From assembly GCF_041248615.1 (NCBI RefSeq), contig NZ_CP158426.1: DNA of 64,000 nucleotides; one strand, written 5' to 3'. The position numbers and the translations under genes are program-made. Origin of the DNA: Escherichia coli. Its GTDB lineage: Bacteria > Pseudomonadota > Gammaproteobacteria > Enterobacterales > Enterobacteriaceae. Below the pieces are notes generated by a model. The model was not told the origin of the DNA, searched no databases, and saw nothing but the letters and a program-made list of their open reading frames with translations. Positions 28,659-50,597 of the stretch are shown one piece after another. Each line of letters starts with the position of its first letter. Positions within the stretch are counted from its first letter, which is position 1.

Positions 28659-28732
28659 GCGGGCGTAGTTCAATGGTAGAACGAGAGCTTCCCAAGCTCT
28701 ATACGAGGGTTCGATTCCCTTCGCCCGCTCCA
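28659..28732 (+). tRNA. glyU: tRNA-Gly (CCC anticodon)
   Basis: 74-nt GCGGGCGTAGTTCAATGGTAGAACGAGAGCTTCCCAAGCTCTATACGAGGGTTCGATTCCCTTCGCCCGCTCCA; acceptor stem GCGGGCG/CGCCCGC, anticodon loop CTTCCCAAG, T-loop GGTTCGATTCC, encoded CCA. Confidence 0.95.
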
Positions 28733-28747
28733 GAATCTCCCCTGGTG

Positions 28748-28770
28748 GAGAAGACTAAAAAAGTCTTCTC
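28748..28770 (+). terminator. Hairpin downstream of glyU
   Basis: GAGAAGACT-aaaaa-AGTCTTCTC perfect 9-bp stem, but no clear U-tract. Confidence 0.4.
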
Positions 28771-29229
28771 TGTCAGCAACTTAAACAGTTACCTATTTAA
28801 TTTGCTTAGGAGTTCTACCATTGTGATCCGCCCTTAGTAACTGTCACGTTAAGTTACACGGTGAGATGACAGTATAACCTAACGTTGGCGGCAGTTGCAC
28901 CTCTCACACCGCGATAGCACAACGTGAAGATAAAGCCCATCCTGGCATTGTAATGTCATCGACAGACTGAACACACGCATTTAAGCCCGATGTGCGGCCT
29001 TGTGGCTGCGTAAACAGGTTTATGGTGATATTGGTCCTTGCAAACCATATGCAAGCTCTATCAGCGTTTCAGCCACGCTCCCAACGGGTACACGGTTATC
29101 CTGATAAGGTGTGATCTTTCTGACAATCTGATGAAGTCGCTACGCTCCCGCTTGTTGCTGTATCACCAACGGGGCTTTATGGTTTCTATTGTCTATAATA
29201 ATCTCACAATTCCCCTGCATGAGGTTGAT

Positions 29230-29436
29230 ATGACTGTTAGCTACAAGATTACTTATGAGCATAGAGACGGTGATCAAATTAGAATGGAAGAGGTTTTATT
29301 CCATTCAGAGCATGAACCAACAAAAGATGAAATTCATGATGCAGTAAGAAAAGATACTGTGAGATTTAATTCTCCATCTAATGGAGTAACGGCTGTTTCA
29401 GGGTTTAAAGTGATTTCGGTTGTCCCTGTTCCATGA
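29230..29436 (+). CDS. Small hypothetical protein (68 aa) in the accessory island
   Basis: Inside track ORF 29038..29436; internal ATG at 29230 has GAGG upstream and a TATAAT -10 about 35 bp upstream; product MTVSYKITYEHRDGDQIRMEEVLFHSEHEPTKDEIHDAVRKDTVRF... is acidic and soluble; low GC. Confidence 0.45.
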   Translation: MTVSYKITYEHRDGDQIRMEEVLFHSEHEPTKDEIHDAVRKDTVRFNSPSNGVTAVSGFKVISVVPVP

Positions 29437-29445
29437 ATGGTTATA

Positions 29446-29468
29446 GAAGGGGCTGGAAGCCCCTAATT
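29446..29468. terminator. Hairpin between the convergent small genes
   Basis: GGGGCT-gga-AGCCCC stem followed by AATTATT, between the 29436 and 29470 stop codons. Confidence 0.45.
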
Positions 29469-29469
29469 A

Positions 29470-29790
29470 TTACTTCTTAATATCGCCAGTGCATTGATAT
29501 TCGATAGTCACAAGTGTTTGCATACAACCAGATGAAGAAGGTTGTGAACATTGAGAAGTGAATCCACCAAAAGGCTCGGCTCCTGAATATCCCCAAGCGG
29601 CACAACGCGCTTTGGCTGCATTCATGCCTTGTTGTGGATCTACAACAGGACTTTCAAACATACCGTAAGAATAACTCATCCTAACTGTGCCGTCTGATTT
29701 GCTTCCACCAGTTGGAACGAGTTGTTTTTTTGTTGCACATCCAGAAATAATCAATGTTGAAGCAAGTAACAGCATTAAACTTTTGCGCAT
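29470..29790 (-). CDS. Putative Cys-rich lipoprotein (106 aa), unknown function
   Basis: Signal peptide MRKSLMLLLASTLIISGC with lipobox ISGC; four further Cys in the mature part; low GC. Confidence 0.6.
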   Translation of the reverse strand: MRKSLMLLLASTLIISGCATKKQLVPTGGSKSDGTVRMSYSYGMFESPVVDPQQGMNAAKARCAAWGYSGAEPFGGFTSQCSQPSSSGCMQTLVTIEYQCTGDIKK

Positions 29791-29934
29791 GTAAATAATC
29801 CCAAGAGATAATGGTTATGTATTGATTTAAAGCGTTTTTAGATTAATGCATTAACTTAGCAAAATTAAGTCTTTTCTGATTGTTTGCAGAGTAAAAATGA
29901 GTTGCTTTCGAAATTATTTCGGATGTTTATTGTA

Positions 29935-30102
29935 TTACGGTTTTTCAAACCGTCTAACTATTGTCGCTATTGAATGGGCAATAATAGCAAGAGGATTCAT
30001 TTCGTCATTGGAGGCAACAAAAAGTCGGTAACTGATAGCTACAACGAATGAAGCAATAACGAGAAAGCGGATAGTGCTAAGATGTTTTGAAGATAAATGC
30101 AT
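29935..30102 (-). CDS. Possible small membrane peptide (55 aa), speculative
   Basis: Manual translation MHLSSKHLSTIRFLVIASFVVAISYRLFVASNDEMNPLAIIAHSIATIVRRFEKP; one predicted TM helix; AGGGGG 4 nt upstream of ATG; the RBS lies in a CCCCCT/AGGGGG hairpin. Below the 60-aa track cutoff. Confidence 0.25.
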   Translation of the reverse strand: MHLSSKHLSTIRFLVIASFVVAISYRLFVASNDEMNPLAIIAHSIATIVRRFEKP

Positions 30103-30442
30103 AACGCCCCCTAAATGAATGTGAGGGGGATTAAATCATGCAAATTTGTTGTGTGCAATACTGGTAATTTATCCTAATAGTCTACTATTCACCTCAATCT
30201 ACGTCAACCAATATTTGATGTAGATTTGATTTTCTTTTAAAAACAATATTTTGCAATTTGTTGGGTTTTGGGGTTAGGTTGTTTTTTGGACGTTTCCATC
30301 AAGTGTAAAGATACGTTTAGCCTTCATAGTGAGTTCAGTTACTGTCTTTTTCTCTGAAATCGGCGCATACGTGATCATCGCTTAACGAGAAGAGCAGCGC
30401 CGTCAGGTCCATGCAGCGACAATTCTGAAATATCAGGAGGCA

Positions 30443-30994
30443 TTACGCTTCCTGCTCTTTCTTGATACGTTGCACCGTTTGTGTGCTGACACTGAAATCT
30501 TTTGCTACGCTCCGAATTGATCCACCATTCGCGAGAGCGGCAGCAATTCCCGCTCGATCAATTGCTTTTCCATTACCACGTTTTGCTATACGTCCAGCGG
30601 CCTTAGCTGCGGCGATCCCCTCACGCTGGCGCTCAAGCATCATTTCACGTTCCATTTGTGCCACTGCTGCAAGCACTGTGAGCATCATATTCCCTGCGGG
30701 AGAGTTCTTCCCTGTCTTAAAGTCTTCTTTATGGAAATGCACAGACACGCCGCGCTTTGTTAATTGCTCAACCGTTGCCAGTAGGTCGGCTGTATTACGG
30801 CAAAGTCGATCAATACTGTGAACATGCAAAACATCACCTTCCCGCACATAGTTCATCATTGCCTCAAACTGTGGGCGCTGGGTATTCTTGCCTGACGCTT
30901 TATCTTCAAAGACTTTATCAAGAGCTACTCCAGCTAATTGACGGTCTGTGTTTTGTTGCACAGTCGATACCCTAATGTATCCAATATTAGCCAT
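30443..30994 (-). CDS. Serine recombinase (resolvase/invertase family, 183 aa)
   Basis: N-terminal MANIGYIRVSTVQQNTDRQ with catalytic Ser in the YIRVST context, conserved DRLCRN, C-terminal HTH (SIRSVAKDFSVSTQTVQRIKK); AAGGA RBS. Confidence 0.85.
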   Translation of the reverse strand: MANIGYIRVSTVQQNTDRQLAGVALDKVFEDKASGKNTQRPQFEAMMNYVREGDVLHVHSIDRLCRNTADLLATVEQLTKRGVSVHFHKEDFKTGKNSPAGNMMLTVLAAVAQMEREMMLERQREGIAAAKAAGRIAKRGNGKAIDRAGIAAALANGGSIRSVAKDFSVSTQTVQRIKKEQEA

Positions 30995-31022
30995 TTTCTT
31001 TATTCCTTCTGTGTTGATTTGT

Positions 31023-31126
31023 GTGTAGTGATTATTGATCGTGTTGATTAGGTGTGTAAAGGACTTTTTTCACTACGAAATTCGAAGGTTTTTAGTGTGG
31101 TGATTTAGCCTGCTTTATCACTACAC
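31023..31126. promoter_or_regulatory. Candidate res/crossover-like site: four copies of a GTGTAGTGAT / ATCACTACAC motif in alternating orientation upstream of the recombinase gene
   Basis: GTGTAGTGAT at 31023-31032, CACTAC at 31071-31076, GTGTGGTGAT at 31095-31104, ATCACTACAC at 31117-31126; the last two form a 32-bp palindromic site with a 12-bp spacer. Confidence 0.4.
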
Positions 31127-45635: not shown

Positions 45636-46667
45636 TTAGTCGCTGGTTGCATGATGACTTGCCTCCAGCGACGGAGTTGACACTGAATGACGACGTACCA
45701 GCGTCGGACTAAAGACATTAGTGATTTCCGGGAGAGGGCGATTATCCGCCAGCGCCAAAGCCAGTTCGGCAGCCTGGGTCGCCATCGTCACGATTGGGTA
45801 ACGCACGGTGGTCAGGCGCGGACGCACATAGCGTGATACCAGCACATCATCAAAGCCAATTAACGAAATCTCACCCGGTACATCAATACCATTATCATTG
45901 AGAACGCCCATCGCACCCGCCGCCATTGAATCGTTATAACAGGCTACCGCAGTGAAATTTCTTCCTCGTCCCAAAAGCTCGGTCATTGCCTGTTCGCCGC
46001 CGCTTTCGTCTGGTTCGCCAAATGTCACCAGCCGGTCATTGGCCGCAATACCACTTTCAGCAAGGGCATCGTAATACCCTTGCAGACGATCTTCGGCGTC
46101 AGAAATAGAGTGGTTAGAGCACAGATAACCAATGCGGGTATGACCTTGCTGAATTAAATGACGCGTTGCCAGCCAGGCACCGTAACGATCGTCCAGAGCA
46201 ATACAACGGTTTTCAAAGCCAGGCAGGATACGGTTGATCAGCACCATACCGGGCATTTGTTTCATTAATGAGGCTAAATCAGCATCCGGGATCATTTTGG
46301 CATGGACGACCAACGCAGCACAGCGATGGCGGATCAGTTGCTCAATGGCCTGACGCTCTTTTTGTTCGTTGTGGTAACCGTTGCCAATCAATAAAAAATT
46401 ACCGGTGTGATAAGCCACCTGTTCGACCGCTTTCACCATTGCACCGAAAAACGGATCGGAAACATCACCAACGACCAGACCGACCGTTTCAGTGGTCTGC
46501 TGCGCCAGCGCACGGGCGTTGGCGTTCGGGTGATAGCTAAGAGACTCCATTGCACTATGCACAGCCAGCCGGGAAGCTTCGCTGGCTTTGGGTGAATTAT
46601 TAATGACGCGGGAAACGGTGGCGACTGAAACGCCTGCCAGTCGGGCTACATCCTTTATGGTCGCCAT
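45636..46667 (-). CDS. galR: Galactose operon repressor (LacI family)
   Basis: 343-aa ORF; N-terminal HTH MATIKDVARLAGVSVATVSRVIN. Confidence 0.9.
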   Translation of the reverse strand: MATIKDVARLAGVSVATVSRVINNSPKASEASRLAVHSAMESLSYHPNANARALAQQTTETVGLVVGDVSDPFFGAMVKAVEQVAYHTGNFLLIGNGYHNEQKERQAIEQLIRHRCAALVVHAKMIPDADLASLMKQMPGMVLINRILPGFENRCIALDDRYGAWLATRHLIQQGHTRIGYLCSNHSISDAEDRLQGYYDALAESGIAANDRLVTFGEPDESGGEQAMTELLGRGRNFTAVACYNDSMAAGAMGVLNDNGIDVPGEISLIGFDDVLVSRYVRPRLTTVRYPIVTMATQAAELALALADNRPLPEITNVFSPTLVRRHSVSTPSLEASHHATSD

Positions 46668-46880
46668 GAAAATACCTTAGTGGGTAAACGCTTACATTCT
46701 TTCAGTGTTACGGAAAACGCCCGTTGGTTCAAGGGGTGGCGTGTTTTCATCGTGGGAATGTGAGCCAAACGCAAATAAGTAAGACAAAAAAAGAGATTGC
46801 AAACCTTTGGTTACACTTTGCGAAACGCTGTTGCGATTGACCGCTGGTGGCGTTTGGCTTCAGGTTGCTAAAGTGGTGAT

Positions 46881-46962
46881 CCCAGAGGTATTGATAGGTG
46901 AAGTCAACTTCGGGTTGAGCACATGAATTACACCAGCCTGCGCAGATGCGCAGGTTTTTTTT
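46881..46962 (+). ncRNA. omrB: OmrB small regulatory RNA
   Basis: CCCAGAGGTATTGATAGGTGAAGTCAACTTCGGGTTGAGCACATGAATTACACCAGCCTGCGCAGATGCGCAGG + T8; conserved 5' seed and terminator hairpin. Confidence 0.9.
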
Positions 46963-47076
46963 GCCGGTCATCAATCTGTAACAGTAACCGACAATTTACA
47001 CACCTCGTTGCATTTCCCTTCATTCCTTTGCGTTTTCTCGCTGGCGAAGAGTCGTCGTGCAGACCACAATCAAGAT

Positions 47077-47164
47077 CCCAGAGGTATTGATTGGTGAGAT
47101 TATTCGGTACGCTCTTCGTACCCTGTCTCTTGCACCAACCTGCGCGGATGCGCAGGTTTTTTTT
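47077..47164 (+). ncRNA. omrA: OmrA small regulatory RNA
   Basis: CCCAGAGGTATTGATTGGTGAGATTATTCGGTACGCTCTTCGTACCCTGTCTCTTGCACCAACCTGCGCGGATGCGCAGG + T-run; shares 5' and 3' ends with OmrB. Confidence 0.9.
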
Positions 47165-47230
47165 CGCACCTAATTTACTGTCGCTCGCGTTCTTTATCTC
47201 GTGTAATCTCCCTCCATTCGCTTTTACTGA

Positions 47231-50597
<3,367 letters not shown>

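Follow-up and report, generated by a model that had tools for sequence, protein, structure and literature searches.

Positions 46881–47164 of the window (the whole 64-kb stretch of Escherichia coli DNA that was analysed) carry the genes of two tandem small RNAs (sRNAs), OmrB and OmrA. The omrB gene occupies 46881–46962 (82 nt) and omrA occupies 47077–47164 (88 nt), both on the + strand, and the interval opens with the first nucleotide of OmrB and closes with the last of OmrA; the two lengths are those of the characterised RNAs (PMC12692685). It is practically certain that these are the OmrB and OmrA genes of the Enterobacterales, that is, tandem duplicates that specify independently transcribed, Hfq-dependent, trans-acting sRNAs.

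A scan of the whole window with Rfam 15 finds two full-length matches to the OmrA-B family (RF00079, model positions 1–87 of 87). OmrA scores 96.6 bits (E = 6e-18) and OmrB 86.1 bits (E = 2e-15), against a gathering score of 40 bits. The first-pass annotation had named both RNAs from the letters of the sequence and had proposed an Rfam scan as the check, and this result bears it out. Direct comparison with the K-12 MG1655 chromosome shows that 46881–46962 is byte-identical to omrB (b4445, 82 nt; formerly rygB) and 47077–47164 to omrA (b4444, 88 nt; formerly rygA or sraE). In the MG1655 record omrB adjoins galR and omrA adjoins aas, and the names and the order given to the two copies at first reading were thus correct: the galR-proximal copy is K-12 omrB and the aas-proximal copy is K-12 omrA. 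The pair was also described there as known regulators and not new biology, a judgement in keeping with the extensive literature on OmrA and OmrB; the pair found here is an ordinary one, already known, and adds no new biology.

Genomic setting

The two genes lie between galR and aas, as the first-pass annotation had placed them. The galR gene (45636–46667, − strand, a 343-aa ORF) is divergent from the sRNA genes, and aas (47252–49411, + strand, a 719-aa ORF) is co-directional with them and lies downstream of omrA; both assignments rest on the ORF and on the annotation of the record. The galR–aas intergenic region (46668–47251, 584 nt) is the same as that of K-12 throughout. The two RNAs, the intergenic region, the gene order and the orientation thus do not distinguish the locus from that of K-12, although the host is not K-12. 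Of 5426 complete E. coli genomes, 5423 match a 701-nt query around the locus, 5336 of them with at least 99% identity.

Three of the 5426 genomes lack any match to the query, and coverage falls below 80% in 18. For E. coli 300709 (NZ_CP025903.1), the match ends at query position 415 (about window position 47014), in the interval that separates omrB from omrA, and matches fall in two places of the record. This suggests that an insertion or rearrangement separates omrB from omrA in that strain.

MicF and MicC resemble OmrA and OmrB in being OmpR-activated, Hfq-dependent base-pairing repressors of outer-membrane protein mRNAs that belong to the EnvZ–OmpR regulon, but they have no sequence relationship to the pair and are assigned to other Rfam families. 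Neither MicF nor MicC is found in the 64-kb window by the Rfam scan, whose one match besides OmrA and OmrB is a tRNA (28659–28729).

This tRNA, tRNA-Gly(CCC) glyU, marks the edge of the one segment in which the wider surroundings depart from K-12. Positions 3716–64000 of the window are colinear, in two blocks and in reverse orientation, with K-12 positions 2959266 to 3024000 at about 99.95% identity, except for 28733–34273. This segment of 5.5 kb lies directly downstream of glyU and replaces about 10 kb of K-12 (2988994–2998983) that comprises the ETT2 remnant and IS2. It carries a gene for a YecR-family lipoprotein (29470–29790, − strand), a gene for a 183-aa resolvase-family recombinase (30443–30994, − strand), a copy of IS1B (33521–34218, − strand) and a truncated wHTH pseudogene. 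The whole segment is 100% identical to that of E. coli NRZ14408 (NZ_LT599825.1), and at least 80% of it is present in only 40 of the 5426 complete genomes.

Between the recombinase gene and IS1 lies a stretch of 2.5 kb (30995–33520) with a GC content of 33–40%, no annotated gene, one ORF of at least 60 aa and no Rfam match at E ≤ 1. It is rich in repeats, with many short direct and inverted copies. Among these are two tandem units of about 59 nt, each with an internal palindrome (31913–32026), a perfect 23-nt tandem duplication (32207–32252), and an inverted repeat of 26 nt whose arms, at 31584–31609 and 32558–32583, are 85% complementary and lie 948 nt apart. About 570 E. coli genomes contain mosaic relatives with 80–90% identity, and FORC_029 has a related ORF-poor element together with the same kind of recombinase, adjoining tRNA-Thr. 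Possible readings of the stretch are an invertible segment, a regulatory segment or a set of decayed genes.

Seed, fold and terminators of the two RNAs

OmrB and OmrA are alike at their ends and differ in the middle, as had been noted from the sequence. Each begins with the 15-nt sequence CCCAGAGGTATTGAT (at 46881 and 47077), the shared 5′ seed. It occurs exactly twice in the 64-kb window, and no further match appears when up to two mismatches are allowed; at that tolerance 0.03 occurrences are expected by chance, and two or more matches were obtained in 0 of 100 shuffled windows. The 5′ target-pairing regions of OmrB (46881–46901, + strand) and OmrA (47077–47097, + strand) form a direct repeat of 21 nt that is identical except at position 16, and the shared block as a whole extends over 24 nt (46878–46901 and 47074–47097; 96% identity, spacing 196 nt), taking in the GAT that precedes +1. 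Both copies match exactly the conserved 5′ end of the family, CCCAGAGGUAUUGAU(N)GGUG. At the other end, the 35-nt 3′ blocks 46928–46962 and 47130–47164, which hold the near-identical terminators, are 91% identical at a spacing of 202 nt. Between these ends, the two copies can be aligned only with gaps and mismatches.

Relatives were collected by scanning a genome collection with CCCAGAGGTATTGATNGGTG, which yielded at least 120 loci in Enterobacterales. Those listed come from Citrobacter, Enterobacter, Kluyvera, Escherichia albertii, Pantoea, Erwinia, Pectobacterium, Dickeya, Serratia, Edwardsiella, Hafnia, Rahnella and others. A homologue of aas, of galR or of both flanks the seed in 103 of the 120 loci listed (tblastn with the GalR and Aas proteins of the window), and most of the other loci are short. 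From the collected loci, 133 distinct RNA sequences were extracted, 63 of which were aligned with MAFFT. Seed positions 1–15 and 17–20 were fixed by the search pattern, and their invariance among the collected relatives is not independent evidence of conservation.

The 5′ end is predicted to be accessible. In the minimum-energy fold of OmrA the seed is single-stranded, and nucleotides 1–15 have a predicted unpaired probability of 0.84. When the 133 distinct homologues among the matches listed are folded singly, the mean unpaired probability is 0.69 for the seed versus 0.40 for the centre. Each RNA of the pair has a more stable fold than its shuffled controls (z-scores of −2.9 and −2.7).

The centre of each RNA is predicted to form a hairpin. 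That of OmrB (46904–46918, + strand) lies in the divergent middle and appears in the minimum-energy fold, and that of OmrA (GGTACG-CTCTT-CGTACC; 47106–47122, + strand) appears both in the minimum-energy fold and in the Rfam consensus structure. Of the 133 distinct homologues, each folded singly, 104 have a predicted central hairpin of 4 bp or more, and 83 different arm sequences are represented. Because MAFFT could not align these divergent hairpins across the family, covariation was counted only for the terminator and for the GGUG/CACC helix; the latter is invariant in the alignment and is uninformative on structure either way.

The terminator scan places an intrinsic terminator with a 9-bp stem, a GATG-type loop and a run of 8 T at 46935–46962 in OmrB, and one with a 9-bp stem and 8 T at 47137–47164 in OmrA (both + strand). 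In both RNAs, a U-rich 3′ tail follows a GC-rich hairpin, and the U run after each hairpin is present only on the + strand. In the 63 aligned homologues the terminator helix is 100% paired, with compensatory double changes in four of its eight pairs (26 cells). The observed covariation score was reached by none of 500 shuffles, and sliding the pairing partners by 1–3 columns lowered pairing to 20–51%. The closing pair is G-U in 13 homologue sequences, where the opposite strand would give C-A; this, too, points to the + strand.

The number of copies varies among the relatives. Of the 120 loci listed, 50 have two exact-seed copies, on one and the same strand in every case, and 70 have a single copy. 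Among the matches listed, the spacing of two copies is 188–307 nt in 43 loci and about 2.0 kb in seven loci of Pantoea and Erwinia. This pattern matches the published picture, in which an ancestral tandem duplication has been kept in most, not all, Enterobacterales (PMC13425233, PMC12692685). Single-copy loci, found in Pectobacterium, Dickeya and some Serratia, Erwinia and Pantoea, have the seed, the terminator and the aas-linked position in common with the present locus, and they differ from it in having one exact-seed copy, whereas the window shows the two-copy arrangement of Enterobacteriaceae with its spacing of 196 nt. In the seven Pantoea and Erwinia loci (L013, L058, L064, L072, L090, L093, L104), the copies stand about 2.03–2.10 kb apart, the first copy is unusually short (76–81 nt), and the paralogues are separated by an intervening stretch of about 1.8 kb.

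Promoters and the link to aas

The region upstream of omrB from −114 to −1 (46767–46880, + strand) equals the K-12 fragment that is activated in vitro by phosphorylated OmpR (OmpR-P), and the corresponding region of omrA (46963–47076, + strand) is likewise identical to that of K-12. In that work OmpR-P activated the −114 to +50 fragments of both promoters in vitro, and a truncation of PomrA at −60 was not activated (PMC5175337); the promoter DNA of the window is identical to these fragments. No coordinates of an OmpR footprint or binding site were found in PMC5175337. The promoter scan of 46600–47300 detected no strong σ70 consensus upstream of either RNA. Such a consensus is not expected of activator-dependent promoters with weak −35 elements, and this result is therefore not counted against transcription.

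The −10 hexamers of the two genes differ in a manner that bears on the choice of sigma factor. For omrB the hexamer is TAAAGT (46869–46874, + strand), with T at −12, and for omrA it is CACAAT (47065–47070, + strand), with C at −12 and at −13. The C at −12 makes omrA almost fully dependent on σS, whereas omrB, with T at this position, is independent of σS (reviewed in PMC12692685). Among the matches listed are 43 tandem loci, and in these −12T occurs in 40 of the 43 promoters of the upstream copy (the omrB position), whereas the promoters of the downstream copy (the omrA position) have −12C in 26 of 43 and the full CACAAT in 23 of 43. Judged from these signatures, the distribution appears to match the published split between σ70 and σS. 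Among the matches listed, the promoter consensus of single-copy loci is of the omrB type, the same picture as that given in PMC13425233.

Two further boxes upstream of omrB, TTACACTTTGCG (46811–46822) and TGTTGCGATTG (46829–46839), both on the + strand, are at least 80% conserved in omrB promoters among the matches listed. The two promoter regions also resemble each other. In an ungapped comparison of 46781–46880 (omrB) with 46977–47076 (omrA), 30 of the 55 positions between −80 and −25 are identical at an offset of 1 nt (+1), versus 10–15 of 55 at other offsets, and the motifs GTTnCA..TTT, TTGCG.TT and CGCTGG are common to both. When the 100-nt regions upstream of both genes were aligned globally with free end gaps, only a meaningless overlap of their ends resulted. 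The homology at the 1-nt offset indicates that the ancestral unit of duplication included the promoter.

The position of the pair relative to aas is strict. All of the 124 copies that have aas in view, among the matches listed, lie directly upstream of it and in the same direction, with a median distance of 241 nt from the start of the seed to the aas start codon. This arrangement could equally be simple inherited synteny. It is also what would be seen if OmpR- or σS-driven transcription read through the omrA terminator and added to the expression of the aas–lplT operon, which serves lysophospholipid repair, besides the action of the RNAs in trans; such an additional contribution is improbable. 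The stronger proposal, that the elements are primarily a cis-acting leader or attenuator of aas–lplT and not trans-acting regulators, draws on the same arrangement but has next to no probability. Both elements carry a promoter signature and a strong terminator (8 U) of their own, conservation is highest in the single-stranded 5′ end, by which they pair with unlinked mRNAs, and many targets are regulated in trans from plasmid-borne copies (PMC12692685, PMC2588501). A contribution in cis by read-through cannot be the main function of genes with these properties, and the reading as trans-acting sRNAs is retained.

Targets, overlapping reading frames and annotation

OmrA and OmrB repress genes for outer-membrane proteins, iron uptake, motility and biofilm formation. 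In the ompT, cirA and ompR mRNAs, the conserved 5′ end binds to the translation initiation region by base pairing; control is regained with compensatory mutations, and both Hfq and RNase E are needed for regulation (PMC2588501). Targets added later include csgD, flhDC, flgM, dgcM, btuB and others.

Pairing was also predicted in silico by matching the first 30 nt of each RNA to the K-12 leaders with RNAduplex. In ompT, nucleotides 1–9 form nine consecutive pairs with +12 to +20 of the coding sequence, and in ompR the same nucleotides form a 9-bp duplex with ACCUUUGGG in the 5′ UTR; both sites are those published (PMC2588501). In cirA, for which a leader window of 170 nt was used, the best duplex lies far upstream of the published site, and its energy is no better than that of shuffled seeds. 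The ompT and ompR duplex energies are modestly better than those of shuffled seeds, 3–8% of the shuffles being as good. Because the energies beat shuffled seeds only by this modest margin, the predicted pairing is consistent with the literature and is not independent proof of targeting.

The pair would work in the window as it does in K-12. Phosphorylated OmpR, through EnvZ–OmpR, would turn on both genes, each from its own activator-dependent promoter, as described in the literature. Published work together with the sequence signatures found here suggests that omrA would additionally need σS, by way of the C at −12, and that omrB would use σ70 with −12T. Each RNA would then stop at its own intrinsic terminator, leaving the single-stranded, conserved 5′ end (CCCAGAGGUAUUGAU...) to pair near the translation start of its targets, which according to the literature would comprise ompT, cirA, fecA, fepA, ompR–envZ, csgD, flhDC, flgM, dgcM and btuB. 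Pairing, in an Hfq-dependent manner, would block translation and promote decay of the mRNA, as has been reported for these RNAs. Since OmpR is the activator of both genes and ompR–envZ is among the targets that both RNAs repress, the pair would form a negative feedback loop on its own activator. What the present analysis itself contributes is sequence identity, family membership, synteny, covariation of the terminator, promoter signatures and the in-silico pairing with ompT and ompR; Hfq dependence, control by OmpR and σS, and repression of the targets are taken from the literature.

Four mechanical ORFs, in the range of 49–78 aa, overlap the two RNAs: 46747–46974 (− strand, 75 aa), 46923–47090 (+ strand, 55 aa, with an ATG start), 47020–47169 (− strand) and 47091–47327 (+ strand). 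The remark in the first-pass annotation that the RNAs account for two spurious ORF calls is plausible in view of these ORFs. They could be taken to mean that the region encodes small proteins, either because the ORFs are real genes or because OmrB is a dual-function RNA, but this reading is scarcely credible: none of the four has a Pfam match, neither K-12 nor one PGAP record has a CDS annotated at this place, the ATG at 46923 falls in the variable middle of OmrB and is replaced by TAG, TTG, ACG or AAG in other species, the 46923–47090 ORF would need read-through of the OmrB terminator, and conservation in the spacer that separates the RNAs is that of promoter boxes, not of codons. The protein-coding reading was accordingly rejected for want of a Pfam match, an annotation and a conserved start codon, and the ORFs that overlap OmrA and OmrB should not be called genes.

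The two records inspected treat the sRNA genes differently, and omrA and omrB are annotated only in the curated K-12 MG1655 record. The RefSeq record NZ_CP025842.1 (locus L001), annotated by PGAP, is 100% identical across the locus and has no omrA or omrB feature, although the scores are more than twice the Rfam gathering threshold. Automated annotation, as seen in this PGAP record, thus leaves the locus blank despite strong Rfam matches. The finding matters for annotation only. In that respect, OmrA and OmrB explain why the 584 nt that separate galR from aas are conserved in nearly all complete E. coli genomes (5423 of 5426), and they anchor the window to the galR–aas region of a chromosome that belongs to E. 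coli and is a close relative of that of K-12.
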